A stretch of DNA of 64,000 nt. It comes from Amphiscolops sp. MND2022. Lineage: Eukaryota. A program made the translations under genes and the position numbers. The stretch covers positions 17,424,001-17,488,000 of the forward strand of contig OZ076409.1 in assembly GCA_964187785.1 (NCBI GenBank). The letters are read 5' to 3'. Under the pieces are notes generated by a model that was not told the origin of the DNA, made no database searches, and saw only the letters and a program-made list of their open reading frames with translations. Shown here piece after piece: positions 24,516 to 58,114 of the stretch; the first letter of the stretch is position 1; each line of letters begins with the position of its first letter.

Positions 24516-27500
24516 CTAATGTAGCAACATCTCCCTTCGCATTTTGTCCCTGCGTTTCTCCTGCTTTTCCATGTTGCGTTTGTTGACCTCTTTCCTCAGG
24601 TCGTCCACAGTCTGTATAGTCTCGTGCAACTTGCCACAGTTGATCTCCCTGTTTTTGATCACCCCGAAGGTGACGTCCCACGGGGTCTTGTCTTTCTCCT
24701 GCGTGTCCAGAATTGTCTACACGCCCCCAAAAGAAATGTTCAGGTTTGATTTTTTTAAACAGACCAAGAAAGTCAATTTGGAATCTTTTGTCTGTTCTGT
24801 TAGTATTGGCACTTCTAACTTTTTCAAAACAAATCTAGGTTACTTCAATATTACCATTCCTAGTTTCAAATTAGTATACTACATAAGTTTAGCGATAGTA
24901 AGTATAGGCTATTCATTTCATGGCAATTTAGTATTTTCAGACACAAATTATTTCCATAACTTCCCGAGTACGGCTACTTGGCATAGCAAACGAGTGCGTG
25001 ACTGTAAAATAAGAATGCTTGGGTTCGAATCCCAGGATGGACAATTTGTTTCTGATTTTCGCGAAATGAAACCCCTTCAGGTTTTTTCCGGTTCTGTGCG
25101 ACTTTTCAAAAAAGTTTTATTACTCCCTTTACTTTTTGAAAAAAGTATGTTTCGATTGCAGGAAAAAGCGGTTTTCGAGTCTCAAGTTTACCTCTTCGGA
25201 TATTTTTGACATTGTATTATATTTGAAATGTTTCACAATTGTTGTCCCTTGCATATTTAAAACACTTTGCTCTTTTTGAACCTTGAGCGAGGCGCCGATT
25301 TCGGCCGTTCCCGGCTTTTTTTTAATTAGTTGAGTGAAATGATTAATGAACATTCCTGCACACAGTATGCTTCTAGTATCTCCAAAGAACTGATCATGCT
25401 TTCCTCCGAGGGAGTCTTGGGAGGCACCGGCTTTTTCCTGCCCCTCGTTATGAAGTAGAGCCACAGCCCAAATGTCTCCACTATCGAGATTGGTGGCGGA
25501 AGAAAGGTCTTACTCTCAAAGTCTTTCATCAACCAGTACATTTCTGTAACAAGAGGTTTGAAAATGATTTTTCATAACAGTCATAGACTAACACATTGCG
25601 GTGACCAATGCTAGAGAATAAAAGTAGATTCTGGGTATTCGCTTTGCTATTTTTGTTACTGGAACAGATTAACAAAAGGTCAAAGTGTTCACCTTGGTCT
25701 TTGTTTCCTTCTCATTTGAAGGGAAGTATTCCTGACTCACTTGGGCACGGTTAATTGGGCAAAAAAAGAACATCAACCATATTCTAAGTATCCGCTAGAG
25801 ATAATTCTAATGAGTTGCCAATCCAACTAACTGAAACTGCCTATTGAAAAACTAAGTTTGGAAATGATGGAAAAACGATAAAATACTCTTGAATCAAGTC
25901 ATTGAGCTGAGTAAGAAACAAGCAAAGTTTTATCTCGAACGTTTGAATAGAGAGCTCCGGCTGGTAATGAAGCGCCCGACTTAGCATTTGAAAGAAACTT
26001 CTTGACTCGATAGATTTGTGGGTATCTGTTACATGAAGATTATAAATGGCGCTCTCCAACAATTTCAAACGACGCAACATGAGATTCAAGATTCCCTACT
26101 CTTCGAAAGACGTGAGTTCTTTTTGGATCCAATCATGTATTCCTTAGCATTCCGTGATTTTCGCTTCTGCGATAAGCAAGTACCTGTTTTCCACTCTATG
26201 TCGGCCTTCTGCACGATCTCGTTGAAGATGCCCCCGTAGATAGCGACGAGCAGGTTGAGCATGAGGGCGTTGCCAATCACGACGAAGAAGAAGCAGGACC
26301 AGACGGTGACACGCTGGTTGCGGCCACTGTACGTCCACGTGAGAAATTGGTTGCCCAGAGACATCAAGTACGGTCGGATGAAAATCCACGACTTCTTCGT
26401 GTAGAACGGTGCTGCAGCAATTGAATCAAAATCATCGATATTATCATAATTAATGAATTTAGTGGGTTTTTTCACAAGGGGTTTCCCCTCAAAGATCAGT
26501 CAGAGTCTATTCAGTTTCTGATAATGTTGCGAAAGGAAAAACCTTTTTTGCGAAAATATCGCAAAAAGGAAACTTCGCAAGTGTTGAATCATATCAAAAA
26601 TCTTACCTGACGTGTTGCTTTCCTTAATGACATGTAGAGCTTTAAATACAGGGGTCCGCACTACTGTCCGAACCCAAAAATACAAACCCCCTCTGCTTAA
26701 ACCTATGAAAATTGCCACCACGTCCCGTCAAAGTACAAGGCAGTAACTAAGAGTTCTACGGGATCAGAACCCCAAAATATAGGAAAACTTTAAGCGAAGT
26801 CTGGGTTCTTTCATTGTTTTGTAAATTTCGAGCGAGTCTAAAAATTAGCTTGGCTATCGTGATTCTCCTGATTTAGACCCCTGCTTTTTGAAAAAAATTC
26901 AATGATACATTAGTAATTGCGTTTTACAGAATTTTTGGAAATCTAGATTTGAAAAGTGTTACGCGGCGCGGGATGTCCTGGAGTCACATAATCGTAGTCG
27001 TAGTAGTAATCGTAGTCATAATCATTGGTGTCACTCCCGTTCACTGTCACACTCATGGGTGCCCCGTTAGTGCCTGCACGCGCTGTCTGGTTGCTGTTGT
27101 TTCTCACCGCACTAGAGGAGAGTGCGTGGGATGTTCAAAATTGCCTCTGGTTTATTTTCTACCAAAGTGTCATACTTGTTCGTATGAATTGGGAAGAAAA
27201 TGTCTCGCTCAAAAAACACTTGTTGTGATCAAATTTCAAAGACTCTGTTTTTTCGAGAACCCAAGAATGGTTTTTGTGCTTTATTTTTGGAAAACATGTC
27301 TCAAGACAAACTACTTTTGAATCGTTTGGTTAAATTTGGCGTTCCTAATATTTTATTGAGTGTTCGAAGTGAAATTTGGCAATAATATACAAAATTTTCC
27401 CAACACAATTTGGTGGTGCTGGTAATTTTGAACATCCCTGTTGGGAGCGTATGAGTGATGCTGAGAGTAAGATTGGGGCTCCGGGACGTTGACTGCGAAT

Positions 27501-30500
27501 ATGAATATTCCGCAGGAGATGATGATGACTATGAATATTGCGAGGAACCAGAGCGTCTCTGCCATCATCTTGCGAATCATGATCCACATGGGACCCAGTT
27601 TGGAGCTGCACTGGTAGAAGCGCAGCAGTCTCACCCACATGAGCATGTTGATGCCACAGTTCATCATGATGGCCGTGTTGCGCGTTGACTCCCAGCTGGT
27701 CAAGGGAAAGGACACTAGACCCATGCTGATGAAACAGAACAGCATGCAGTTCTATTGTTCACACAATTGCCCTTTTGAATATTGTTTTTCATTAGAAACA
27801 GTCGATTTCGTTTTGCATGTAACCCCAAGGAAAAGATGAATACTATTTGGTCCGTCAAAGCAAAATTGGTAAATTTCTGGTTTTAAACTAGAAAACCCAT
27901 TGAAAAACATAGCTCCAAATTAAGATCTAGATATCGATTTTCATAGTAGTGTTGGTTCCAGTGTATCAAGAATTGAGTGTTTTTTACATGAGTCACAAAA
28001 GCCGTATTTCGAATATGACCCTGAGTTTGAGCATCAAAAGGTTAATGCAGTGCAGAAATTGATGGGAGTACTTTTTGATGATACGGATGATGGATAACCT
28101 GAGATATACTAGTTCGATGATGTTCCACTCGCTCATTGCCCAGATACGCAGCTTCATGCCCCAGCTGGCCCTCTGAGTTACTAGTTGGCGGTAGGCCTCC
28201 AGCGCGTAGCACACCATAAACTGGAAACTCACCATGCCCCACACTGATCTGAAACAAACCGGAAGCGGCATAGTTCGGCATCCAGCTTGAGGCTCAAAAA
28301 GCGCAAAGTACTTCAAATCATTCAGGAACTGTTTTTTGAAAATTCCCACAGTGCTGGTAAAAACTCGAAGGGAAGACCCTTTGGCCCTAAAAGTTTTTTC
28401 CCAACTGAAAGATGCAAGAACGCTTTGTGGAGTTAAAAACTTCGAAAAGTCGCACAGTGTCAAAACAAATACACATAGTTTTGTAATTCGCATAGCCACA
28501 AAAAGTGCCAAAAAATTGAAAGAGGACCCTTCGGATCATTTTGACCTTCTTTACATCATGGGCTTGTAGATTTCTTTTACTTCGACTGGATGGAAAATGG
28601 CAAAAGGGCACTATAATATTTATTTAATAAAGCGCCCCTAAATTGTATAAATTAATTCTTCATTTGTTAGATGAAGTTGTCGGCGTTTGTTAGCCTGGGG
28701 TTCTAATTAATAATTCTCGTAGAACGGCTCATCAGACATTGACTTTGGGTAAGCTTTTGCTCTATATTAAGCCTATTTACACTTGCGATAAGCAAGTGTT
28801 ATGGGAAAGTGCGGGTGCTTTTTTTTCCGCGCGACAACTCTCTGATTTCACGCGGCAACTCGCACGTTTCACGCGTTCGTGGTCTAGTGGTAAGATGCTT
28901 GCCTTTCAACCCAGAGGTTTCGTGTTCGAACCCGTGGGTATGCGCTAATTTTTTTACAAGTATTCCGAAGCAGAAGGTTCTGACTTTTTTCGGCACTATG
29001 AGACTTTTCGGCTTTGTGAGACTGTTTCAGAAAAAAGGTTTCTTTTAGGGCAATTTTAGCTTTCGGGAATAATCGTTCTCTATCTTATTCTTAATGTCTT
29101 CGATTCGTAAGAGCTTTTCAATGTAACAAGAATGAATGTAACATCACATAATGAATCAGGAACGAATGAATACTAAAGATACTAAAGTCAATCCAAATGT
29201 TTTCAGTCCGAGCTTGAAGTACGAAAAGTTTTCAGTCTGAGCTTGAAGTACTAAATGTTTTCTCCGAGTTTGAAATAGTGAATGAAATTCAACATCCTCC
29301 CGTCAGCATTGAAGAAGGGATGGGTGCAAAGCCACATTGACGAAAGGCGCGGCAGGTTGTTGAAGATTCCACTTGTTGTTATGAATGCAAGATAAAGCAA
29401 ATTTACCGTACCAATTGATTTCACCTTGTTTCAAGTTAGTTTTAATTTTCAAAGCAACAATTGTTATTCTTGAATTATTTCAAGAGGTGAAATCAATTGC
29501 AGTGGCCTCCGGAAAGTTTTCCCGGATGAAATCACTTCAGCAGCTCTGGCTTGACCATCTCGTCCGATAATTAATTTTGACAATTTTCCAATGCGCCAAC
29601 AATGACGAGGGCGTTTTTCATGCAACAATACTATGTCATTTTCTTTTGGAAGCGGGTTGGACAAATTGTTTGATGGAGAATTGAAAAACTGTCGCAGCTC
29701 TATCAAATACTCTTTTGACCACACTGCCCAAAATTGATCGACCAGTGTTTTCAGAAATTGTTGTCGTCGTTGAATTGATTGCAGACTGCTCTCAGGGAAT
29801 TCGACGGTTGAACCCGAAAGACTTCTGCCGTTGACGAGATGGGAAGGCGTTAAAGGAAGACACTCTGATGGGTCGTCCATATAGAGGTATCCTAGTGGTC
29901 GACTGTCGACTACTGCTTCAACTTCGGTGACTACTGTGACCAGTTCATCGTACCCAATAACATTACGACCTAACGCCTTTCTGAGTGGTTCCTTGACCGA
30001 TCTCACTAGTCGTTCCCAGAAACCTCCCCACCAGGGTGCTAATTCCACGTTGAACTTCCAGTCAACTCCAGGATGGGAAAAATTCTGGCAAAGGAAAGAC
30101 ACAAAAGCCTTGACATCTTCGCTCGCTCCTCTGAAAGTCCTTCCGTTGTCGGAATAAATTGTCACTGGAGCGCCCCTTCTTGCCACGAATCTTTTGAAAG
30201 CCCGCAAAAAAGCTACCACCGTGAGACTTTGTGTGACCTCCAAATGAACTGCTCTTGACGACGCACAGGTGAAGAGACAGATGTACGCCTTATTGCTTCC
30301 AGCTTCAGGATCAAAATACTTGAGGTAGAGTGGTCCCGCAAAGTCTACCCCGATGTGAGTGAAAGCTGCCGCTTGAGACAACCTCTCCACAGGCAAATTT
30401 GCCTCTGCTTGAACCCTGTATCTTCTTCTATTGTAACGCTTGCAAAACGTACATTGCCTGATCACCCGTCGAACCTGCTGTCTTGCCTTGACTACCCAAA

Positions 30501-33500
30501 ACTTCTCCCTGAGTATGCTGACTGTACACCGCTCCGACCCATGATTGACCCTCTCATGAAAATGCATGATAATTAAGTCTGTTATGTACTCCCCTGCAGG
30601 TAAAAGAATAGGATTTTTGGCATCGAACGACAAAAACTGAGCCTCCGCCAACCTTGTCTGACACCTTATCAACCCGTCCGTTGATAGAAAAAGCCGAAGC
30701 TCTTTGACTCTCGAAGGCTGAATGCCCTCCTGCTTCGCGAGAAAACGCAACTCCTCCTGCAAACTTGCCTTCTGTACTGCCGAAAGAATCATGTTCTCCG
30801 CCTGCCTTTCTTTCCTTCTAAACCGCATCTTCCGCAAACGCTCCAATACGCTCAGAAGAAGTCCTACTACCTTAACAAACCTGGAGTATTTGCTGTACCG
30901 CCTGCAGTCTACTACACTTAGTAACCTAACCTCCGGTGAACACTCAACAACTGCAACTGTTGTACAAACTTCTTCCTTTCCTACCTCATTCGATAACCAC
31001 TTCCCTTCCTCGTGTTTCAAGAAATCTGGCCCTTGCCACCAGAGCCGACATTCCCTAAGATCACCTACTCTCAAACCTCTAGACGGAATGTCCGCCGGAT
31101 TTTCTTCTGAAGGTACGTAGTACCATGAGTTGACATCAGTTAACTCTCTGATCTCAAGCAACCTACGCTGAATGAACTGCCCGTTGTTTGCTGTGTGTGA
31201 TCGAATCCATGACAAAACAATGGCTGAATCCGACCAGAAGTGACTCCCTCGAACCACCTCACCTAAAGCGACCTCCACGTTTTTACTCAGTCTAGCAGCC
31301 AAAAGTGCAGCAACCAACTCCAACCTTGGAATGGTTCCCGATTTCAAGCTACTCAACTTAGTTTTCGACGCAATCAAAAAGGTTTTGATTTCTCCTGCGA
31401 CAATCGCACGACCATAACAAGCTACCGCACAAACCCGCTGAGACGCATCTGCAAAACTATGAAGCTCAATTCCGTACCTACCCTGTACCTCAACATACTG
31501 CCTTGGAATTACCAACTTTTCGTTTCTCCACTCCCTGAAGACCTCCTGAAATGTCTTACCACTTTCTTCTGACAAAACGTCGTCCCAACCCAAAGACCGT
31601 TTCCAAAGATCCTGAATTGCTAACTTGAGCTCCACCACCACTGGTGAAACTAACCCCAAAGGATCGTAGACGCTAGAAACTACTCCCAGCGCTATTCGTT
31701 TCGTCAGCTTGTCTTTTTCTGCTAAACACTTCAAGAATGTGGAAAAATCGAAATGTATTTCATCCTCTTTGACTTGATATGAAAGCCCCAACACCTTCAT
31801 GCCTACCTGTCCTGAAATGCTTTCCACCAGCTTCTTTGTTTCCAAGAACTTAGAAACTTCCGACCTATTTGTCACCCATTTCCTCAGTCTCATGCCAGCC
31901 TCACCTATCACCTTTTCTGAGAGTGAAATCAGCCCCTCCGCTTCTTCCACTGTAGGAATACTGAGAGTCAAATCGTCAACATAAAAGCTGTCGATCAATG
32001 ACTTCAGCATGACTTTATCCTTTTCACTCTGTGCCTTCTCTAGACACCTTTGTAGATGATACCTGATTGTTGCGTTTAGAAGAGATGGACTACAAACAAA
32101 GCCAAAAACAACCCTTAAATACCTAAATACTGCCACCTTCCTGTTGCAATCGAAAGGATTTTTATACCAAAGAATCCTCAACGCATCAATGTCGTCTTGA
32201 TGCACACAAACCTGAAGAAACGCCTTTTCAATATCGGCAAGAACTGTGACCTGAAACAACCTAAACCTTAGTAAGATAGCAAACAAAGAAACCAATAAGT
32301 TTGGACCCTTAGAAAGACAGTCATTAATTGAAAAGTCAAACTTTGATGACCTCGCTGCACCATCCAGCACCACCCTGAGCTTCGTGGTTGCCTTGTCCTC
32401 TCTAATGACAGCATTATGAGGTGTGTAATGACACCTTTTGCTCGTGTTAATGTCCTGTTCTGGCACCTCCTCCAGGATACCAGCCCCCACTTGTTCCCTC
32501 AAAACATCATCATATTCCTTCAACCGACCCTTAGCAATGATGCTTCTCGTAGTTGACTCTAACCTGCTTGTTGCTAGCTTCTTGTGATCTTGTAAAAACT
32601 CTTCATTCCCGTTCCACGGAAGCTTAGTTACGTACCTTTCCCCGTTGAAAGTAACTGTTTTTTGGAAATCCTCGAGCATAGTGTCTTCTTCTGTCTTAAT
32701 TCCCAAGCTTTCCAAGTTCCAGAAAGATTCGACCTTTTCCGATAGAGTATCTGCACCCTGTACAGAACTCAAGAAAGTTCCCACCGAACTTTCCGACTGC
32801 TCATCCCCGCATTACAAAGGCCCCGACAAAACCCAACCAAACTTACTGCTGACCGCACTAAGTTTATTACCATAGCAACCGACAACGACTCGCGATGTCA
32901 CGAACTTGTAATAGAGATCTGAACCAATCAGAACATTGACAGACAACGCCCCCACGACGTCATCTTGAAGTTTGGGACCAACTAGCAAACAATCATTAAG
33001 TGAACAAGCCGGGACCGGCCCAAGTCGGCGCCATATCCAAGGCTCAAAAATAGCAAAAAGACTTCCAAGTGTCAAGTATTCTTTTACAGAAGTCGAAAAT
33101 CGAAAATTTTTCGAAATTTTTTTTTGAAAAAATTACATACTAAAAAAATTGGACCGAGTGGCGCGCCGGGGCTCGCTAGCGCGAGCCCCTGGCGCGCTAA
33201 CGTCTCACAATGCCGAAAAACTGAAAGGGGGGACCCTTTGAGGTTTTTCAACATCCATTCTGTCGCAAAGCATGAAAAAATTGAAGAAATTTTTTTTTGT
33301 TTTCGGGAAAAAATTTTACAATGCCGAAAAAAACTGAAAGGAGGAACCCTTTGGGATTTTCCAACATCCATTCTGTCGCAAAACATCAAAAAAATGCAGG
33401 GGGGACCCTTTGAGGAAAAAAAATTTCGAAAAAAAAATTCCGAAAAAAATGTCTCCAGTGCCGAAAAAAATTGAAAGGGGGGACTCTTTGGTCTCTCCCG

Positions 33501-36500
33501 GTATGGTATGTTACGCGGAAAAACAGGTAAAACCTTTTTGGTTCAGTTCGCTAGACCAAATAGTGCAATTTGACACCATAATATTTTGTAGAACTTTTAA
33601 GAACTATTTTGGTCAGTTCGTGTGGATTGAAAAAAAAAAAAAAAGAAAAGTCACTATAATAGTCGCGTTTCACTTCATGAAGCGCCGACTAAAAACCAGT
33701 TGTCGTTTTAGCACTAGCGTCAAATACAACACGCAACTTGGTGGTTGTACTATCTTCTTTCAGCACGCAATGATGAGGCAAGTAGAAGTTCGGAGAATTA
33801 TTAATCTCCCCGGGTTGGACCTTCTCCAAGTGTCCAAGGTCAATGAATTCTTGAATAAAAGCTGAATACTTTCGAAAAAAATCGACATTATGGCGCAAAG
33901 TGTATTCGAGACGAATGAAACGCTTCATTGCGTTCGCTTTCGAAAGTCCTAAATTGTGGGGTCCATCTTTAAATGGCATCTGTACTACAAAACGGCCGTC
34001 TTCATTGCGTTTTGTGGTGCTATCGAAGTGCTCTTCACAACGACGCTCATCCAAAGTTAAATGTCTAGTTTCGGGGACACTTTCTATTTCCCAAAATTTC
34101 AAAAGGAGTTGGTCAGAGTCACAATTCGGAGTGGTAGTCATGTGGGACACAACGTTGTTGCTGCCAGACGAATACACAGGACCAGACACAACCCAACCGA
34201 ATACGGAATCCCGAATGCACAAGCCGTCGTCCTTTATTTTATTATCAAGCATAATGTCTTCTATAACATCTGCACCTAGCAAGAGATCAACCTTATTAGG
34301 AACGTTGAAAGTGGGATCAGCTAAGTTAAGATTTTTCACATGGCGCATGGTCGAAACGTCAATTTCTTTATCAGGAATGGTATTGGAGATTTTTGGTATG
34401 AGATGAAGATTAACTTCGATAGTATCATTCAACTTCACAGGCAATAAGCCTCGAGTTTTTTGGAAATGGGAAGAACCCATTGTAGAAACATTTATTTGGC
34501 TGCGCTGAGTTGGCAGCATGAGCGCCTTTGCAACATTTCTGTTACGAAACTGGCTTGTGAACCAGAATCTAAGAGAGCCCGCAGCTTGATCGCGTCTCCC
34601 GATGAATTCCGAATTGTTACAAGAGATGTAGAAAGAAGAACAGTATTTATTTCATTGTCAGCACTAAAGTGCCCTGTGGTGAATTGCTTTGTAGACTCCA
34701 TTTTGTTGGAAGTCGAATTCATACTTGAATAAGTCTTTGTAGAGGTGCGTTGATCAGGGAGCTGTTTCTGAGGTCGATGAAGCAAGGTGTGATGTTTCAT
34801 TTTGCACTCACGACAAGTGAACTTTGATGGGCACGCATTAGACGAGTGTCCTGATTGGAAGCAGTTGAAACAGAGCTTTTTGTCTTTTATGAACTTATGT
34901 CTATCAGCAAGACACATTCCTTTGAATTGTGAACAAGCATAAAGGCGATGATCCTCCTGGCAAGATTCGCACGATGAGCCTTGAACAGCATAATTCTGAA
35001 CCCTTTTGGTCAGCGTTTGATTCCCTTGGTTACAGGGAGGAGTCACACTTGGTTGCGGTGTGACCTTTGTGCCACCCGATTCGAGTGCACGGCTTCTTGT
35101 GTCAAGGAATTTTGACAATAATTCCCAAGACAAAACGTCAGTGCCAGGATTATCAAGCTGCCACTGCTTACGTGACTCTGGATCCATCTTGTCCGTCAGA
35201 ACAAAAACTAAGATTGCATTCCAGTGTTCTACTGGTTGACCAAGTTCAACGAGTGCTCGTAAATGCTCATTGGTGAGTTCCAGAAGTTTTCTCAATCCAA
35301 GAGCGGATTCAGTTTTCAAAACCGGCTGCGACCAAATTGCTTGCAAATGAGCTTGAATGATGCTCCTTTTATTTTCATAACGATCTTTCAACAATGCAAA
35401 GGCAATATTATAGTTTGCGAGAGTAAAGAGAACGAATGTTAAAAAATCCCAAAGGGTCCCTTTTTTCAGAATTTTCGGCACTATGAGACTGTTCAAAATT
35501 CTAATTTTTTTTCAAAAATTTTTTAGACTCCCTTATTTTTTTCAAAAATTTTTTAATGTCCCCAAAGCGTCCTCCTTTCAATTTTTTGATATCTTGCAAC
35601 AGAACGAATGTTATAAATTCCTAAAGGGTCCCTTTTTCACATTTTTCGGCACTATGCGACTTAGCGGAAACTTCAAAAAAATTCGAAAAAATTCGGAAAA
35701 TTTTTTCTCAATTTTTAGTTTCAAAAGACCGTTTTTTAAAGACCGATCTTTTTTCTATGCGACTTTTTTAAAATTTGTTTTCACCGAAGCCCCTGCTCAA
35801 TTTTTACAAGAAACGAAACGTTTTGCGAGAGGACTCCTCAAGGCTTTGCGACTTACCGGAGACCATCAAAAATGTTTTCGAAAATTTTTTTTCTATTTTC
35901 TGTTTAAGGTTTTCCGTTGAGAAAGAATGGGTTTTTTGCTGTTTTCAGTTGGGGAAGAATGGTTTTCGAGGCTTACGCGTATAACTTCGGGTATTTTTTG
36001 GCGCAGTAAAATTGATGAAATTTTAATCTCCTTTTACCCTTGGTTTTCCGTATGATATTGCTTATTTGGTTTTCTTCAAAAGTTCGCAAGTGTTTGCGAA
36101 GCACGGCTTCGCCTCTGTGTTTGATGAACTTGTACTATTTTCGAAATCCACATTTTTGATGTCTTTTCCGGAACCCGCCTGAAGCAATTGTATCGTAATC
36201 TGTAAATGTTTCTTGGAAATTGTTTCGACCTTAAGTGTGACTAACTTCATGCCTTGTCCAGTGTCGATTGTTGAAATCGTGAAGAAGGCCAAAAACACCA
36301 AATATGCAATTGTGTGCATGCAGAATTTAGCTATGGGTGATGTGTAGAAGGTGTAGAGCATGGTTTTTGTGGACATGCCTTTTGTCTTGGACTCTCCGGA
36401 GGTTGAACTGGTTTCCGACTCGCGGGTTCTTGACTGGCGACTCGTGGGTTTTAATATACTGCTCGAAATGACGGGTAGATCTTCCGCGGTGCCCATTGCT

Positions 36501-39500
36501 CCTCTCTTGTGCAGAGACAGCCGACTGTTTGCTAGATTGTCGAATCGATCAGTCCCTGTTGTCAGGGCTTGTCTGTCTACATTATTCAAAAATATTTTTT
36601 ACTTAAAAGAATTGTTAAGGTCTCCCCTTGAAATGCCTGCGTGCTTATGGGAGGTCTTTTTGGGAGATGTCTTTTTTTAAAATTTTATAAATAAAAGTGT
36701 ATTTGAATGTATTTGACTCCTAATAAAATTAATTATCATTATTATGAAACACGTTCAAAGGAAAAAGTAGGCCATGAAAAGGTCTTCAAATGAGGATTCA
36801 AAACGTTTCGACATTTTATGAGACGCGCGAGAATTTCAACTAATTTTAACTCACGTCATATTGTTTTTAAGCTTGAATGACGTATCGGAAATCAATCACT
36901 ATTCGGTGCACGTAACTAGCTCACAAAATGAGAAAACTGTTCCGTTCAATCATTTTTTCCCATTTTTCCTGCAACTGGTGTCAGACAAGTCCTGCCTGCG
37001 ACGCTATTCGCAGTGGCACTGATCAACTTGTTATGGAGGTTCTTGGGAAAAGTCAAGCTCCACTGAGAAGTGTTCTTTGACTCCAGGTGGTCTTTAGAAC
37101 TAGCAGACTCGGGTCTCAACAAAGAACCGACCGTGGCCTTCTTTCCCGTCGAGCGGTTTTTGCCGGCAGTTTTCCACCGGTTGATAAGCGAGGATCCAGT
37201 GGGCGTGTTTCTGGCGTCGCGGTCGAAACCCTGGCTGCCCAGATCTTCCTGTTTACTGGCGTCGTCTTCGTCTTCCAAATTTTTCACCTGAAGAGCCGGT
37301 TTTATGTTACAACAAACTTGAATTACGACCCGTAATGTTTTCGGTTGAAATCCCAGGAAATACCTGTGGAGGTATCAGGTCAAAATCTCCCTAAGTTAAA
37401 ATCTCCTAGACCTGAATCTCCTAGGTCATAATCTCCTGAATTGAATTTCATAGTGTGAAAGTAACTTTGATTAAGCATTAATAGCTGCGACAGTCATTGA
37501 AAGATTAGTCTCACCTAATTGACTAATGAGTGAAGGTAATTAAAACGACCACCACGCCGTTCTTTACGCGATTAAAGTAACGTGACGAAAATGTAATTGA
37601 CAATTAAGTTGGCGAGTTGTTTTTCGATGAGTTCCTTTTATTCTAATTTTAGGAGATTTTGACCTAGGAGATTTAGGTCTAGGAGATTTTAACTTGGGAG
37701 ATTTTAACCTAGGAGATTTTAACGTAGGAGATTTTGACATGTAATCACCTGTAGGCTACCAAAACAGCATTTATAAAAGTTATCAAAGCAGAAAACACAA
37801 AACGCAATGTTTAAGTTGGAACAACTATTATGATCGCTCAAATCTCAAAATAGTTTTTTTTACAGTTGTTGGTGATGGCTATGAAGCCGACAATTACCGA
37901 TTGCCTAACATAAAATTTTTCTTTCAAACATCAATAGAGCCCTCAAAATTACGTTCATTTTTGAAATCAAGTTTTCAAGTCCTTAGTAATGAATTTTCCA
38001 AATTCACTTGGTCTTATCTGACACAGACAGTTTTGCGATGAAATTGGCTGGACAATACCCTACTGTATATCGGAGTTTTATAGTCTGCTTTTGCAAGTAT
38101 GGTTTTTGCTGTATAGTTCTAGTTGAAACGAAGGCTCCAGAAACAACGTTTCCAGCTTTCACTCCAATTGATACATTTTGAGACAATTTTCGTGTTCTGA
38201 CTCAACCACAGTAAAAAAAGTGACAAACTAGAAAAACACTGGATTCCTTTGATTTAAGAAACACAGATAATTGTCTGACTTAAAAGGGCAGTGTATAAAT
38301 TAATCTATAAAAAATGCTAATACATGTATTTGTCAAAATATTAATCAATGGAATCGGTACTCTCTCCAACATCTACCATAATGCGGTCGTTCGATTTCAT
38401 GCTCTATTTGTTTATCAAAGAATTCTGTAAATCAAACTGTATTATATCATGGACCTGGTAGTTGCACAACTCATGGTCCTGTTCCTGCTCTCTGTCCCTC
38501 TCCCTGTCGTGGGCGAGGATGTCGATGTCCAACTGGTCGTCTGAGTCGTGCAGCTCTGCGTCGTCGGTCATGTCGAACTGGTCGTCGCTTTGCATGCCGG
38601 GAGACTTCTCGTCTTTGATCATCTCGTCGTGGGCGCCCTCCGCCTTCAAGTGGTCGCCCTCGACCCCGCTGTCGTTGTCACTGTCGTCTTCGTCCAACAG
38701 ACTCGCGTTTGACGAGTGCGTCTCCTTCAGGGTCAATTCTTTCAGTCTGAATGAAATCAGAATTCATTCGACTCCACTACTTGGTAAAAAACCAATTTGT
38801 ACGGCCTTTATAGTTGGTGCAAAAAACGCAAAGTTCCAATGCTAACTCATTACAGGACAGACTATGTATATGAAATATACAGATATCCCCAGGATGTCCG
38901 GACCTGCGTTCTTTTTCATATTATAATGAAGCATATTTTTTTTGCATACCGACTTTTTTTAATATTTCCCCTTTGAAATGTAACGAAATATATATTTTTT
39001 CACATGCCGACTCACTAATTAACATGTTTTGCAGATCGAAAAAACTTGGTGATAAACTACCTAAAATTTAATATTTGTGTCGTTCGACCTAGATATTTTT
39101 GTTCAGAAGGAAACTTTCGAGGATGTATTAGATATTTAAATGTTGAGAATTCTTATTTTTCCATGTTCGAAAGGTTTGTTTTGCGCTGCATTTTTTTTTC
39201 GTCGTTTTCCAATGCAATGAATTATTGCATTCAGTTTTTCAGATTTCTTAGTTTATCCTCATTTTTTGAACAATGAACTCCAATAGCATGAATGTTCACT
39301 ATGAATGTCCTGCAATTTGGTGGGCTGAAATGATTCAATGATTTTGTATGAATTTAACCCTCCAACCGGGATAAGCTGAGAAAAAATGACATCGTGAGTT
39401 TTAGGAACAACTTTAATAACTGATATTTGTAGAAATTTCAAAAGCAGAAGGTTTATGCTGGAGTGTTTCAAATCCAAGAACACTATTAAAGTTTGCAAGA

Positions 39501-42500
39501 ATTTGACGTTTTATTTTAGAATTCGGAAAGGTTTTAAGAATTTGTAAAAGCCTTCACTTTCCCTACACCGATGTTGAAAACATTGATGTTTTATCGCTTT
39601 GTGGATGCGGTGTACCTACGCGTGTGGGTAGCTATGTGAAGATCTATGTGAAACAAGAAATGAATCAGACATAGAAGATTTTTTCAGGATTCAAATCTCA
39701 AAAAAAACTCGGAACAGTTGAGTGTCAAGTTTTGGAAAATAACAGACTTAGTGAAATGTGAAATTAACATTCCAAAGTGGACCTGAAATAATTGTACATG
39801 CAAGCAATGGCAAGTGTATGTACTAATATTTCTATTTTAAGGCTTATTTTAACAACGGTTTTCTATTATAAGGCATGCTCCGAAGGTATGTCTTCTCTCG
39901 GTTCGTACCGCTCGTTCTAAAATGAGACACCCCCTAATCCTCCTATTAGTAGTGTAATATTCCTACATCACGAAGAACACTGCGTATTGTCGGAGACTAG
40001 AGATCTTCAAATAATAATAAATAAATAATAATTGACAATAAAATTATTGTAAAAATTAATTGTTACGCCAAAAAAATACAATTATTGAAAATGGTTAATT
40101 ATAGTGTAACATTTTTTTCTGAGAAATTTGAGGCAGCTTCAAACGAACGAAACAGGCTGCCATCTTCCAATATTTTCGTTCTTTTTGCAATTATTACAAA
40201 GTTATTAAAAGAACTGTTAGAATGGATGCAATTTTTTGTTGAAAAAGTTGTAATAATTATTGTTGGGTAACAATATAAGATCTGTGTTAGAGACTGAGCT
40301 GACTGGATTTCACTTTTCTGTTCATTGCTTTCGAAGGCCTTATTAGTGGGCGCTTTATGAAATCAAACGCGACTATCGTAGGGCTTCTCGTGTCGAATGT
40401 GCCGAATGCCAAAATCATTCAAAGGGTCCTTATTTTCTTTTTTTTACACATTCAAATGGTCCTTTTCTTCAAAAGTCGGATACATATTTTTCAACATACT
40501 TATTCGAATTTTAAGGCTAATGTGTGTTCATTTTCGGCTCTGTGCGACTATTTTTGAAAATTTTCTGATTTCACCAAAGTGTTTTTCTGACTTTTTCAAG
40601 AAAGCACAAAAAGCACTTTTCCATATAAACATTTAGCATTTTTGAAAGTAAGAATAAAGCTTCATCAAGGTCAAAGAGTTTATCTTATATTTTTGTCCTC
40701 TGTGAGATCGAAAATTATTCAAAAACAATTCCTTAAAGCTTAGAAGTTTGAGCCTTAAACTGTAAGGGTCCTCACTTTCATATTGTGACAAATATTTGGA
40801 TTAAAACAGAAGTTGATTTCTTGGCACAGTGCAACTTTTTGGCCCCCTTTGGGTTTTTATGGTATTTCTACTTTTAAAAAGCCGTTTAAAGCCTAGAAAT
40901 ATAAAGCATGCCATATAATAGAATGTCCCCAAATTTTGCAGATGGTTGAAATACAGTTTCGAATAAAAGGTTTAATGTGGTCATAAGAATTCTGTTTTTT
41001 TTTCTGGTGTTTATATTTTTATTCATTTTTGTATGTTTGTGAGCAAGCAGCAGACTGATTCCATCATAACAAGAAAGTGTTTAAGCGGTCTTCTACATAA
41101 ACAGCAGTCTTTATCATTTCTAATCAGACAGTGGGCATTTCATAGGTGTTGTGCATGACATACCTACGGTTGCGATCAATAATACGCGTACTTTCTCTAT
41201 CAAATAACAGTTCGAATTAGAATAAGAATAAAGCTTTACTCATACATAATTTCTCTAATCACAACCCGCCTTCGAATATAAACCGCTTACTTAGGCTCTC
41301 AAATATTAGCGGGCTCTAAAATCTTCATAATGCGAACCGCGGCATGCAACTGGAAAAAAATGTTTGCATGAATTTCCGGTTAAAAACATGAAAAATCCTT
41401 TTTTCTTCACTTACTGTTGAATTCTTCGCAATGCGGCCGCAGCCCTTACAAAAACGTCCCCCTGACCGGAAGTTTCCAGCAGCCGTTTCTTTTCCATCCT
41501 CAAAGCTTCCTTCTTGGCAACTTCCGCTTTCTTGATTAGATCTCTCTTGGCCTTCAGATGACGCTGTGTCTCTTCGTCTTCCTAGAACCAATCAATCAAA
41601 CATTAAAGGAGCAAAGTCTTACTGACAGGAAATTCTCAGAAATCTAAATCTGTTTCCTTTAAGACGTAGCTAGTCGACCGATCGCTCATGTGGAAAGCGC
41701 GTAAAATGTAAATATCGTCTGTAGAACTGAATGCGATGTATTTTTTTGATGTATACCCGACCCGTTTTCCTCGTCATTTCAGATCTTTAAACGGTGAATA
41801 GATGATATTACACAGCCGCATTCAAACGGAAATCGATTTTTGAAGAAAAGAAAGTTAAAGAAATTCAATCATGAAGTTGAAATCGTTTTATGACGTCATA
41901 ATCAGTGGTGCTGGCATATCTGGAAGCACTCTGGCAGGATTGCTGAGAACCAGTCCTTATTTGAAGGAAAGGTCCATCCTCGTCATCGATAAGTCAGTGC
42001 CCAAGATACTTGACCCTTTCAAAAACGTTGACAAGGAGTCACGACCAAATTTCTCGAAGCGTATCTACGCCATAAATGCTGCGAGTAAGGATATTTTGGA
42101 AAAGTTGGGTTCCTGGGAAGTTATATGTGATAGTTATCGACACTGGCCGGCTTACAAGATGCAGACTCTAGACTCGTTGTCACCTTCAGGGTTCACGACC
42201 TTCTCAGCAAGTCAAAAAACACAGGTGAGAAATTATGAAGACTTTATAGACGATGTTACACGAGCTAGTTACACAGGACCCTTATTTTGAAAAAAGTCGA
42301 ATTTCTTCAAATTTGCGAATTGCCAAAAGTGAAAAAGTCTTGAAAGAAAAAAAGAAAAAAAAAGACTAGAATACTCAAATAACCAAAGGTAAGCAATCGC
42401 TTGATTCTCGCTAGATATCAGTCCTAAGTTAGTTTGCAAAAAGTTTTACCATCTTACTGTGACATCGGAAGGAAAGACTAGGCACTATCCGAGTCAGGCA

Positions 42501-45500
42501 CTTTTTCAAATTTAAAAGCGACCGCCGACTAAAAATGAGTCTTCAAAAATAATTTGAAAGTTTTCTAATTTAATCTTGCATCCATAATATGGCTTGTTCC
42601 AATGACCCCGAATTGAATAGTCGAAAAGTGCTGAATTAGATTCTTAAATTATTACAGTCTTGAATTTTTATGCCGTAGAAACCAAAAAAGTTCTCATTTG
42701 AATAAACACACGGTATTGTACTCAAATAGTTTTTGCCTAGATCCCTCTGGCCTACTTCGTTGAGAGTGACGTCATTACTTCGAGTAATCTGCAATGTCTT
42801 GCGGACTCACAGAACAGTCAGTGCGAAGTTCACGTGGAAAACGCAGAGGTCGCTTCTGTTGATGAAAAGTCTTCTTTTGTCGAGTTGAGATTGAAGAATG
42901 GCGAAACAATTTCGACCAGTTTACTTGTAGGGGCAGAGGGTTTTAATTCACCCGTTCGGAATTTATGCAAAATGGATTGGTATACCTACCTGTACAAGCA
43001 CCACGCTTTGGTGGGAACCTTGGGAATTGAGTGCCCCGAAAACAATCACACCGCGTGGCAACGTTTCTTGAAATTTGGGCCTATTGCATCTTTGCCTTTA
43101 TCACAAAATGCAAGCTCGCTCGTTCTTTTCGCTGACAAAGATTATTTACAAGAACTCATGTCCAAACCCGAAAATGAGATTGTTGAAACCTTGAATGACC
43201 ACTGGACCAATGAAGACAATGAGATTAATGAAAGACTGGACGATATACTGGAAATGTTTTCGAAGATATGTAAAACAGGCTTTAACGCAGAAGCTGAAAA
43301 CTTCAAAACAGGAGCTCCAAAACCTCCAAAGATTGTTTCCGTTGACAAATCCTCACTTGCAACTTTTCCGGTGGGTTTCGGACATGCGGTGCATTATGTA
43401 AAACCAAACGTTGCTCTGGTGGGCGATGCGGCGCACAGAATTCACCCGTTGGCAGGACAAGGGGCCAATTTGAGTCTTTCTGACTGTTTGTTGCTTTTCA
43501 ACAAAGTAGAAGAAGCCCTGAAGTGTGGAGAAACACCAGGAAAAGTGGCGATTCTATTGGAATATGAAAGGGCAGCACAGAGACATAATCTGCCGGTGCA
43601 GCTTTTTTGTGATTTAATTTACAGAGTTTACGGCTCCTCGGCTGCTCCCGTTGTGCTAGCAAGAACTTTGGCGGCCCAAGCTGTGCATAATTTGGACTTC
43701 ATAAATGAACTGTTTGTGGGGAAAGCATCCTTCTCCGATATTTTCAAGAAAACTGCTGCTCAAAACTGAATAATTTTGGCTTGTTATTGTAATAGTTGTT
43801 GAAAACCCCAGGCAATTTAGTTTTGCTTTAGTCATATTTTCCTGTTATTTCTTAGTGAGTTTGCATGCAGGTACCAGACATTTTCGCTTTGTTATCATTT
43901 AAAAATGCAGCGATAAATTTTGTTACCACAACTTTAAATCAACGTCACCGGGGAATGCAACCTGATGATCAGTTGATTGACTTTAATAATTGGATCACTA
44001 AATTGGGTGTGGGTACCTCGAGAAAGTCGTTGATCTTTTTGCTGCGTTTGTCGTTCTTGGACCTCTGCTGAGTGCCCATGCGCTCTTTGTCCGCCTTCAC
44101 CTGGTCTATGTCTGTCTCGAAGATGGTCTCCCTCGTGATGGCAGTCACTGCAGCTGCCCCACAAGAGGAGGCCACGGCTGCCAATAGGGGACTGTTCACT
44201 TCTGTCTCCGAGTCCTGCCAGTGGGCACCGCCGTGATTTCAATGGGCTTACAATAATAGACGATTTATTCAAATAGTTACACCTTGATGTATTTAGGTTT
44301 TTTGTTAATCGCTATAAAACCACTACTTTTAAAATTGCCAATGTGCTTTTTAAAAATGTTATCTCGTCCAGATTTTAATAGACCGTTTCTACTTTCTTCT
44401 GTCTCAAGTGTGTCTTTTTGCAGTTTTTTCAAGAGTTTTCAAGACTCGCAATTACCATTTAGTCAAAAGTATTCAAAATTCCAGACTTCGAGCTTTTTCA
44501 GGAAAAATACACTGATAAGTTACTTGGAAAATGGTTTCGCTTTTGACGGAATGATGTTCCACACTTCATTTTAGCACATTTCGCTCTGCGGTTTTTTAGA
44601 TTTTCTTGCCTAATATCGAAACTGGAGACAGTTGCAATGACCATGTACACATTTCAGTGTCAGACGGGGGGCTGTACTTTTTTATTTGGCATAGATTTTT
44701 TTTAGAAATCTAGTTTGGTTTCATAGAATTTTTGGCCGAACCAACAGTAAAAAAGCTCAAAACTTGGTGTATTTTGAACATTTCTGGTATTTCGCTCTAA
44801 AATATCCCTTAAGGGCATATCTTCCGTAACCCACTGTAAGAGACGGTTCACCAATCTCTTGACAACCGTTTGCGGATGCAAGAATGACTGGAGTTTTCAG
44901 CTTTATTTACTGGTTAACCGAAAAATTTCGTTTTTGTTTGAAAGTTGGGTTTTTTGTGTGTGTTTTTATGTTTTGTGATGTCATGTCTCCTCTGTGCAAA
45001 CTCTCCTGTATGGGAAAAAAGTGCTCAACCCTTATCAGGTGTATCGCCAAAAGCCTTGGTAAAACGAGGACGAAATCACGATGTATCCAAACTTGCAGTT
45101 TTTTTTTACAAAAATGCTGAAATCAAAGCTTTCACTGTAAATTTTATTCTGAAAATGCGGTGCCCGCCTTGGTCTTCTTTTCAGGAGCAGGGGGTAGCTT
45201 CTCTGTGATTGGCTCCTCCTGGTCTCTGAAGAAGATAGGGATTCTGAAAGGCAGTAAAAACGCAATCAACACTTGTTTCAGACTGGCTGTGAGGCCCCCC
45301 TTCCACAGGTTGTCGATCGCCACTTGCAACAGAGGGTGCGCTATGAACTCTTTTGCTTCCTAAAATACACAACATTGAATGTGAATGTTTTGGATATTTT
45401 ATACACTATTGAATGTATACCCTATATTCTTTGATTAGCTGTCGTCGCTAGTTCAGGTAGTCTTGATAGAATGAACTTCATGAAAGCCAAGTTTGAAGAA

Positions 45501-48500
45501 AAACTCGCGAAAGATTGAAAAACCATAATATGTTCCTAATTTTGTTGCCTGCCTACTTTGCGATCAGTAATGATTTCAAGTGGAAGATTCAAAAAATTAT
45601 AAACTTGGCAAAATAGACTGGGTGAAATTTTTGAGGCGCCTTGTTTTTCCCCATGGGTGAATAATAATAATATTTCCCATGGCTGAATAATAATAATAAT
45701 AATAATAATGAATGTTTCCTACGATGAATGCAGCCAAGTCCATGAGATTTGTCCTCTCGAAGCCCCTGTACTTGTAAGTGACCAGGTCAGCAGCCATCTC
45801 TCTGTTGACGTGCCAGGCGAGGTCGACCATCTCGGAAGCGAGCTTGAGGTAGTACTCGCTGTTCTGCACCATCTCCGCCCGCGTCTGCTCGTCACGAGGG
45901 GGCACCACTGTCTTGTGTGCCTCCCAAAGGCGGGAACAGATCAGTGCCAACATCAGGGGAGTCTGAAAAGGGAGACTGCACCGTCTGAAGTTGGCGTTAA
46001 TTATGCTCAGATGTGGCTTTCAAAAGATTCTGGAAAATCTCACAGTGCAGAAATTAATAGAAGGAGGCTATTCGAGCGCGAAAAAATCTTTTCCGAAGTT
46101 GAAACGTCAAAAACCAAAAATATTCAAAAAATGAAAAAGTGGCACTGTGCCGAAAAACTACATCTTATGTTTATATGGAAAGAACGGATGTGTATTGAAA
46201 TGAGTGTCCGCGTATGAAACATGAGATCAGGCAGTGCCTGTTAAGGTGTATTGGTAAATAGCGAAACGTATCTCCCAGAATATTCGACAGTGAATAACGT
46301 CCAAAACATCGAAATGGAAACAAGAGTGAGGGGGAATAGGATTTAAAGTATAAGATCTAAAATTTAGTAATATTAGATCTTATTCCCTTTAGATATTGTT
46401 CCCGTCCTGAAATTTTAGATCTTATGCCCATTTTTGACTTTAGATATTATCCCCTCCCTCTAAGCTGTTTTAGTTACTTGACTATTTTAGTTACTAGTAA
46501 CTAAAATAGTCAAGTAACTATAGGTGAGGTCGAAGAAACTGGGAGGAGATTTGGCAGAATTTGGAAAAAAAACGGAACACAGATTATGATTTTCCCTCCC
46601 CCATTATATGTGGGCGGAAAATGATAATTTGAATGTGAATACAATCGTGATCAGCTATGATCTGTACGTCCAAGTCTGTAAACACAGGAAAGAAGCAGAG
46701 AAACGTGCCATTACTGATCTAGAGGCTTGTTTTCAGAAGCGGCCCAAAAAGGAAGGCCTAGTCATACAACAAAGTTTCAAAATCTGTTTTTACTTTGGAC
46801 CGTAATTTCTTTTGAAGACCTTTTTGAATTCCAATAAACAGTCTTGGGGCGTTATTTCTTCCTACCTTGTTACGACGTATGAAGCGTGCATTCAGCGTCA
46901 ATGATGATAATAAACAAGTCGGGAACGGCATAAGTCGGCGTTATATCTAAGGCTCAAAAATAGCAAAAGGACTTCAAAGTGTCCTCTTTTACAGTACACG
47001 AAGAACCCAAAAGTTGGACCAAATTGGCACGCTAAAAGGGGGACCCTTTGGGATTTTTCAACATCCATTCTATTTTTCGGCATTGTGAGACTTTTTTTCG
47101 GAAAACTTTAAATGACTTCAAAAGGTTACCCCTTCATTTTTGTTGTTAATTTGCAACAGAATGGTTGTTAAAAAATCCCAAAGGGTCCCCCTTTTAGCGT
47201 GCCAATTTGGTCCAACTTTTGGGTTTTTCGTGTACTGTAAAAGAGGACACTTTGAAGTCCTTTTGCTATTTTTGAGCCTTAGATATGGCGCCGACTTATG
47301 TCATCCCCGGCTTGTTAAATTTTAAACTAGACACAGGTAGAACGTGATTGACCTTTGAGCGGGACCAAAAGAACTTGGACATCTCCATCTTGTCAGTGAG
47401 GATTGCCCAGATACACAGCTCCCGGAAGGGGTCTTGGAACGTTCTGAGCCCACTGTTGCTGCTCCCCTCACCCTTACTGTCGGGCAGAGTCTTGAGCTGA
47501 TGTGTGGGTCTAGCACTGGTGCAAATCTGGATCAAGTTGTACACGTGTTTGATCTTGAAGTACGGCTTGGATTTACCTGCAAAATTTAAAGCATTTGAAA
47601 CCTCGATCGAGTCTGAAAAGTAATTTGTTTTCGGTGGTTGATTTTGTTCATTCGTTTGTGATTCAGCTATCAACTAGAAGTGCTTTTAGGGCGTGCAGAA
47701 AAGATTGCGCAAATTTTCATTGTTGATTCAATTATTTACATTAGGTATTTAAATATTAGTAATTTTCGACCTTGAACTGTTTATTCCAAAATGTGCCACA
47801 ATTAGCAGTTTGAATTGTTTTTTAATCATGAACTATCAGGTGTGAAATGCCAACTTGGGCATTGCCACTGAGGTTATATATTTTCTCATGTTTTTGTTAA
47901 CAAAATTTAAAGCTGCATTTTTAACCCTAAGTGGATCATTGGTATGAATTCGTACCAGTTAGCTTCTGCAACTTTCTAAACGAACCAGCTGACCGTATGG
48001 TTAAGAAAACTCTTGAATAAGATTTTCAGACGATATTACATAGCATTGCATGCCTTTTCACGGAATATCGACATGTTGTCTCTGATAAAGAAAACGGTAC
48101 CAAAAAATCAAAAAACGTGAGCGCAGATTTTTCGTTTTTCTTGTTTTCTTGTATGACCCTGTTTTCTTTATCCAACTGGTATCAAGATTGGGTCAAAGTG
48201 GCCCTCGCATGTTTTGACACATTCTGAAATGCAGCCAGAAACACGATGCGTGCAAAGTTTTGGCGCAAAGTCCGGAGCCAATACGGCGAAGCCACTAGCG
48301 GGCCCCCAGCCCAGCAGTTTAAAAATCAAATTGAAAGCTCTGATTGTCTTCTTTCGAACGCGCTGTAAATCGTGTGACGGACTTGAATAGTTTAGGAGAT
48401 ATTGCGGTTTAAAGTTTAAGCACCAGATTTTTGGATGAATCCGGAATTTCCTGGTCCACTTAGGGTTAAAGGATTCAGGATTACTTTGTTTTACTATGTC

Positions 48501-57976: not shown

Positions 57977-58114
57977 CGTGCTACAAAAAACATTAAATAT
58001 TGTTTCATTTATTAAATATTTATAAAAACATAATTTCATACATTATATATTTTAAGATCTTCAATTATGGACAATAAACGATCAAAGGTACTATGAATTT
58101 AGTTTCCTTGACAA

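Follow-up and report, generated by a model that had tools for sequence, protein, structure and literature searches.

Non-GT Introns with Inverted End Repeats in an Acoel TRPM-like Gene: Probable Derivation from Inverted-Repeat Transposons

Introduction

Intron birth through transposon insertion is seldom described in animals. The closest described systems are introners with terminal inverted repeats (TIRs). These introners form families of sequence-similar introns, come with target duplications, carry or co-opt splice sites, are removed without disturbing the reading frame, and show raised use of GC and GA donors (PMC9860276, PMC12130899). Here, we describe four introns, A to D, with inferred GC, GC, GG, and GA donors, respectively, in a TRPM-like cation channel gene of Amphiscolops sp. 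MND2022. The window is the whole 64,000-nucleotide stretch that was analyzed, C1:17,424,001-17,488,000 (contig OZ076409.1) of a 1.07 Gb assembly (GCA_964187785.1). Inverted end repeats and GC/GA donors recur here, and target duplications, carried or co-opted splice sites, and frame-neutral removal may do so; the intron interiors, however, are unlike and only the ends remain. The term acoel does not occur in the accessible main texts of the two introner surveys, nor in 12 of the 14 supplements of PMC12130899, and no acoel report of such introns was found in the literature searched, which covered few subscription papers. Relative to known introners, a donor within an Ac-like end and a lineage absent from the surveys searched are new.

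Introner-like elements (ILEs) of Polarella glacialis are similar in geometry. In ILE class 12, the GC donor consists of the last G of the duplication and the first C of the element, as proposed below for class I introns, and in class 13 the donor lies inside the element end with the AG past the duplication, as proposed for class II (bioRxiv 10.1101/2020.10.14.339549). Polarella, however, is a dinoflagellate with 4-5-nt duplications and young families, whereas the host here is an animal, the duplications measure 8 nt, the end resembles that of Ac, and the donors are GG/GA.

In maize, the element Ds1 is reportedly spliced as an intron. The end of the maize hAT elements Ac/Ds, C/TAGGGATG, shares its first 8 nt with a young family of the genome studied here, and the 8-bp duplication and small nonautonomous copies are alike (PMC3260210). 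The maize cases are mutant alleles, whereas the introns here are fixed in the assembly within conserved genes, and no intact transposase was found with this TIR in the ORFs tried.

GA and GG donors with an obligate exonic AG, A at +3, and apparently recent introns, as here, are known from the copepod Eurytemora affinis (PMC5714493) and from Oikopleura (PMC7072748). They account for 10-12% of introns in E. affinis (PMC5714493) versus 5/323 in our sample, and the accessible portions of both papers give no transposon-end origin for them. Introns derived from miniature inverted-repeat transposable elements in Fritillaria are mainly AG-AC or AG-AT (PMC11282704, PMC13326754). SOS splicing excises transposons from mRNA through pairing of their inverted ends, and its hybrid mode uses a canonical AG acceptor (Zhao et al. 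2025, PMC12779559). It resembles the present case in its non-GT 5' sites near the inverted terminal repeat (ITR), in the AG acceptor of the hybrid mode, and in that the genome studied here has an AKAP17A-domain gene. SOS splicing is imprecise and involves intact ITRs (PMC12779559), whereas the arms here are 7-17 nt long and decayed, and the inferred sites keep G at +1, an exonic AG, and an AG acceptor like spliceosomal introns. Introns A-D also do not conform to the nonconventional introns of euglenids as described in the accessible text of PMC11282704: their acceptors are AG and their donors begin with G, and across the introns compared for geometry the right arm stops 6-24 nt short of the 3' end.

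Results and Discussion

Inverted Repeats at Four Non-GT Introns

The exon end and donor of introns C and D match the terminal repeat of a young hAT-type family in the same genome, and A-D are probably old introns derived from TIR transposons, of hAT type for C and D. The initial annotation had reported four in-frame junctions with an inverted repeat starting at each donor, and at most weak matches in the canonical introns of the gene. The junctions and repeats are present at those coordinates (Table 1; a caret marks a splice junction), the frame is kept, and the weakness of canonical matches was borne out by the scores below. The repeats do not strictly begin at the donor: those of the C/D type start 3 nt into the exon, and that of B starts at intron +2.

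Table 1. Introns A-D, their end repeats, and the host gene, in window coordinates
Feature	Position	Strand	Remarks
Intron A	44215..45167	-	inferred GC donor (AAG^GC); next exon begins with G; class I
A left arm	45157..45167	-	10/11 match to right arm
A right arm	44221..44231	-	6 nt from acceptor end
Intron B	36556..36995	-	inferred GC donor, formed by G and the first C of a repeat starting CAGG; class I
B left repeat	36982..36994	-	13 nt from intron +2; 12/13 match to right repeat
B right repeat	36563..36575	-	7 nt separate it from AG^G
Intron C	27112..27437	-	GG donor (inferred); probable remnant of a hAT-type element
C left terminal repeat	27421..27440	-	exon CAG plus intron +1 to +17; first 13 nt equal the young family TIR
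C right terminal repeat	27126..27145	-	inner 17 nt 16/17; outer 3 nt 1/3
Possible 8-bp target duplication remnant of C	27118..27125	-	4/8 versus 27441-27448; weak alone
Intron D	24717..25355	-	GA donor set by protein colinearity; likely of the element group of C
D left repeat	25347..25358	-	11/12 versus family TIR
D right repeat	24731..24742	-	8/9 plus G-U; outer 3 nt 2/3
TRPM-like cation channel gene	24516..57979	-	20 introns, ~1600 amino acids modeled; tblastn, Pfam, spliced frame

The right arms end 6, 6, 17, and 17 nt before the acceptor ends of A, B, C, and D, respectively. End repeats were scored with one arm anchored at the donor and the other ending 2-30 nt before the intron end (match +1, mismatch -1). 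A, B, C, and D scored 9, 10, 15, and 7, respectively, and scores were 2-6 in the gene's 15 clear GT introns. As a control, each of A-D was matched with 3' ends taken from 299 unrelated GT introns in the same genome. These pairings reached the observed scores 0, 0, 0, and 11 times out of 299, respectively; the repeat of D alone is therefore not beyond chance.

An exon search returned three relatives of the gene. The best named one is the Symsagittifera TRPM-like protein P0002 (75% identity), which matches the exons at 53-82% identity each by tblastn and has the Pfam domains TRPM2/LSDAT/Ion_trans; P0001, a genomic read-through open reading frame (ORF) of a relative, is 87% identical to the gene. 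With A-D included, the 20-intron model forms a single open frame of 1601-1606 amino acids that reaches a natural stop. Judging from frame and protein comparison, A-D would be spliced at the junctions in Table 1. For D, no other donor scored as high as CAG^GA in comparison with the acoel TRPM proteins P0002 and P0003: it reached 300, and the GT alternative, whose use leaves a 2-amino-acid gap in the alignment, 265. For A, a non-GT donor is required because the GTs all precede residues that P0002 conserves, and the exon tail below 45261 contains none; the protein comparison alone does not single out which non-GT donor is used. Protein support for the donor of C was weak (192-201 versus 185-191). 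For B, the GT alternative is likewise in frame, and the donor has no protein support.

A Young hAT-Type Family with the Same Ends

The donor of C, CAG^GGATGTTCAA, is identical to the terminal repeat of a young multicopy family in the same genome. The exon end and donor matched the family TIR at 13/13 nt for C and 11/12 for D. The family is dispersed, with copies ~90-95% alike, and two inverted pairs form 1.3-kb elements with the TIR CAGGGATGTTCAA and perfect 8-bp target duplications. Duplications of 7-8/8 were found in 10 of 12 copies examined. These 12 include the two pairs; the other 10 copies gave 7-8/8 in eight and 2/8 in one, and the left end was not found in one. The short Ac-type TIR and the 8-bp target duplication are those of hAT elements, and smaller elements of ~430-500 bp bear the same ends. 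One copy, L144, contains a BED-finger-like ORF (zf-BED) with a Pfam E value of 0.0024, short of the cut-off, for which the Atlas also gave a lead. No match to a dimerization domain was found in the ORFs tried; the genome holds at least 150 hAT dimerization-domain matches.

Because their ends match those of this family, C and D were likely born of transposon insertions. The initial annotation had suggested that C and D might be one family and that the introns either came from TIR elements or use end pairing to define weak 5' splice sites. The free young copies now found match both C and D and support a common family and a TIR origin for the two introns. A and B likely descend from other inverted-repeat elements, with no parent family or target duplication found for either.

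The pattern CAGGGATGWWCA had 739 matches in the genome versus 100 for the control, with inverted pairs among them, and not all of these matches are element ends. We fetched 35 early-listed C1 matches, skipping known cases and two tandem neighbors. Fifteen were internal to other multicopy repeats, five were two-ended small elements (target duplications of 8, 8, 8, and 6 of 8, and none), one was intron-like (L165), and 14 were undecided. A tighter C/D pattern gave 12 matches versus 1 for the control, with no inverted pair and a possible arm at L012 and L008. A search for the arm followed by 8 nt and NAG was dominated by one internal multicopy repeat. L165 (G000:C1:6738531-6739280) is an 89-bp TIR element with an offset of 14 and a 5/8 duplication that interrupts an ORF, and is a candidate class II intron. 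We take the interrupted ORF to be DNA transposase-like, in which case the host would be a mobile gene.

Geometry of Insertion and Splice Sites

The introns fall into two classes by the position of the repeat. In class II, to which C and D belong, the TIR would start 3 nt inside the exon and the donor would lie three bases into the transposon end. Small hAT-type DNA transposons would have inserted into coding exons to give C and D. The element starts CAG^GGATG, and its CAG would remain exonic, supplying a strong AG^ context; the rest would be a near-consensus donor short only of the T at +2. An AG of the host sequence, located beyond the duplicated target, would act as acceptor; it would lie 14 nt (3+8+3) from the arm, or 16-19 nt once later indels had occurred, and the frame would be kept. 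In eight GG/GA-ATG introns, the 3 nt beyond the right arm, a stretch outside the scoring, complement the exonic CAG at 19/24 positions. The offset of 14 predicted from an 8-bp duplication plus NAG occurred in two dynein introns, L012, and L165, with 16-24 in other class II introns. The duplication remnant of class II matched at 34/88 positions versus 22.2 expected (11 introns, p 0.004), a split by geometry chosen after the data were seen; the unsplit test of all classes gave a weak 31/79 versus 21.4. The offset-14 subset matched at 16/32 versus 8.3 expected, and C and D taken singly at 2-4/8.

Class I comprises A, B, two dynein introns, and five pattern matches, and its repeat appears to begin at intron +2. 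Here the target would end in AG^G, its last G and the first C of the element would form the GC donor, and the second target copy would supply the acceptor AG 6 nt beyond the arm. The offset was 6 in five introns; the other four had 7-11. A G opens the downstream exon in 9/9 class I versus 179/299 GT introns. One class I intron retains 7/8 of a duplication. A GCACGCATTG donor group was enriched (37 versus 4), and 5 of 18 fetched matches had both arm and AG^G, without homology proof. The right-arm motif of A showed no excess (16 genome matches, 23 in the control); that of B had 13 matches (control 14), B's own being the only inverted pair. Two other models of class I were dropped: a TA-duplication (Tc1-like) element shifts the frame, and a 6-bp-duplication element fits 1/4.

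Independent Test in Dynein Genes

The end-repeat excess was examined in 17 dynein heavy-chain genes (800 kb) with 150 reference proteins. Junctions were called by protein colinearity with AG acceptors imposed, no donor prior, and at least three references. The 337 junctions comprised 306 GT, 12 GC, 3 GG, and 2 GA, with 9 ambiguous and 5 without solution, and this donor-neutral calling ranked GT first at 284/332. Non-GT introns thus made up ~5% (17/323) of those called. All five GG/GA introns followed CAG within gap-free conserved protein, and their best GT alternatives scored 12-201 points lower.

The end-repeat comparison left out the 14 ambiguous or unsolved junctions and 7 GT introns shorter than 90 nt. 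A score of at least 6 was reached by 8/17 non-GT versus 12/299 GT introns (Fisher p 1e-6), and a score of at least 7 by 6/17 versus 4/299. GT introns had the same score distribution as the cross-pair null. Inverted repeats at non-GT intron ends therefore exceed chance, as in TIR introners, and the end-pairing excess in non-GT introns expected in the initial annotation was found. Four of the five GG/GA introns carried an anchored arm 14-19 nt before the intron end, and GC introns with a consensus-type GCTAGT donor had no arm. Among 21 non-GT introns, no interior was shared except for common repeats, and a search with the interior of C returned C itself as the sole match. Only the end motifs recur.

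Two side observations concern these genes. At junction 11385 of gene g9 (C7 region, L064-L068), the top donor was CAG^CT, 18 points above the best GT, and the junction was kept as ambiguous. Introns 18754 and 59822 of gene g6 (C11:1730246 and C11:1689178) start with the same GCACGCAT donor, and the tails of both contain TGTGACGTCAT; their interiors differ. Across dynein paralogues, 93/279 GT introns lie at a position common to any paralogue, with at most 8 per pair; so few shared positions suggest heavy intron turnover.

Counterevidence and a Possible Take-Over of Old Donors

Several findings weigh against the proposed derivation from transposon insertions. Intron interiors match neither the young family nor each other; the insertions would thus have to be old, and families of similar introns, by which introners are recognized, are lacking. 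C and D have offsets of 17, not 14, with no codon lost. Class I introns show no overall duplication signal (12/45 versus 12.1 expected), and genome pattern searches found no free parent copies of A, B, or the GCACGCATTG group. The set of 20 introns used for geometry was selected for having an arm, and 7 of them came from pattern matches without homology proof. In the dynein sample, 9/17 non-GT introns scored below 6 with no anchored arm, and the GA intron g12_1236 pairs internally without a hAT-like end. In the dynein genes, a paralogue has a GT intron of the same position and phase for three of the five GG/GA introns and for one GC intron with an offset of 14. Such sharing, assessed by local mapping since whole-chain mapping reached only 139 introns, was thus found for 3/5 GG/GA introns and 4/10 paired-or-GG/GA introns versus 23/178 (13%) exonic CAG sites (p 0.02-0.03).

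Either parallel gain or the take-over of old introns might account for the shared positions. Under take-over, a GT intron would already have been present, and a hAT end inserted near its 3' end would have become the new donor once the old 5' part was lost, leaving old introns with transposon-derived ends. This would suit the GG/GA introns at paralogue GT sites, well above the 13% background, and the often pyrimidine-rich intron tails. It does not explain the exon-matching duplication remnant in class II or the absence of an intron in P0001, which reads through the position of intron C; moreover, common positions can also come about when introns are gained in parallel at the AG sites of conserved Gln/Arg residues, and the introns number only five. 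We regard take-over as improbable and prefer birth by insertion.

Splicing Machinery and End Pairing

The major spliceosome, with a relaxed requirement at +2, would do the cutting. It is suggested by the G at +1, the exonic AG, the A that GG/GA donors have at +3, and the AG at the acceptor, as in Eurytemora (PMC5714493). In our proposal, the ordinary spliceosome would tolerate changes at +2 after CAG and so remove these introns. A dedicated U1 with a changed base opposite +2 was not found among the 20 genes read of 23 found. Among these 20, the 5' end of the U1 genes L207, L213, and L214 (C7, C3) is complementary to donors of the GTTAG type, and in three other genes it is replaced by an AT-rich sequence. 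T occupies +3 in 31% of GT donors.

Predicted folds close C (z -3.8) and B (z -2.3) with a terminal hairpin. In a set of introns chosen for having arms, the arms have decayed less than the duplication next to them, and this hints at selection on pairing. A wobble bias as a sign of selection was not significant (G-U 12 versus A-C 8, p 0.5). End pairing would have been inherited from the transposon and perhaps partly kept for bringing the splice sites together, but a functional role in splicing seems unlikely.

Pairing might alternatively have been selected at weak donors without any transposon, a 3' guide offsetting the loss of U at +2 and the hAT likeness reflecting convergence on CAG^GNATG. 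The confinement of pairing to non-GT introns, the better-kept arms, g12_1236 with its pairing but no hAT-like end, and the lack of a U1 with a +2 change would all fit. Yet C equals the young TIR at all 13 nt, some of which lie outside any splice consensus, the offsets are fixed at 6 and 14-17, no G-U bias is seen, and consensus-type GC donors have no arm. We therefore judge this account quite improbable. That the donors were misassigned, with nearby GT sites used and the repeats being chance or irrelevant transposon scars, is very improbable: protein evidence is weak for A and C and none for B, and random pairings match the arm of D, but the donor-neutral method ranks GT first at most junctions, the GT alternatives of the GG/GA dynein introns score lower, and no random pairing reached the arms of A, B, or C.

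SOS splicing is imprecise and hence a poor fit to frame-exact sites; the inferred sites keep AG^G..AG and the frame, with acceptors limited to AG by design. Excision in SOS splicing relies on ITR pairing and on AKAP17A, CAAP1, and RTCB. A genome search found no match to CAAP1, which does not imply its absence. A wider scenario would have hAT-derived introns fixed in conserved genes such as dyneins, their GG/GA donors still needing end pairing in a precise, domesticated hybrid of SOS and spliceosomal splicing, together with hAT ends taking over old donors. We offer it tentatively, as possible but unlikely.

Under birth by insertion, rare animal GG/GA donors are linked to a named source, an Ac-like hAT end. 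Since only the ends survive, introner surveys based on family clustering likely miss such introns, and animal transposon-born introns may be undercounted. Introns of the A-D type would be fixed, naturally occurring material for studying whether pairing of ITRs leads from an insertion to a permanent intron, and the GA/GG introns of Eurytemora and Oikopleura are open to the same end test. A non-GT share of this size would also break a GT/GC-only annotation of this genome.

Other Features of the Window

The exon downstream of intron C has two in-frame donors, CAG^GA (26,977) and CGC^GT (26,962), and may precede a fifth non-GT intron. Its end-repeat score is 3 with either donor, that is, no end repeat. 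The 8-kb intron 36245-28249 contains Pao/BEL retrotransposon ORFs (Peptidase_A17, RVT_1, DUF1759) at 29464-35511 on the minus strand. Antisense within the TRPM intron 44016-41582, a gene for a FAD monooxygenase (Pfam FAD_binding_3, SE) lies at 41859-43769 on the plus strand; we presume it to be COQ6-like. An AT-rich stretch precedes the first modeled exon (57979) and ends with AG directly before the ATG, which fits an upstream intron or a trans-splice acceptor; spliced-leader trans-splicing has been reported in Symsagittifera.

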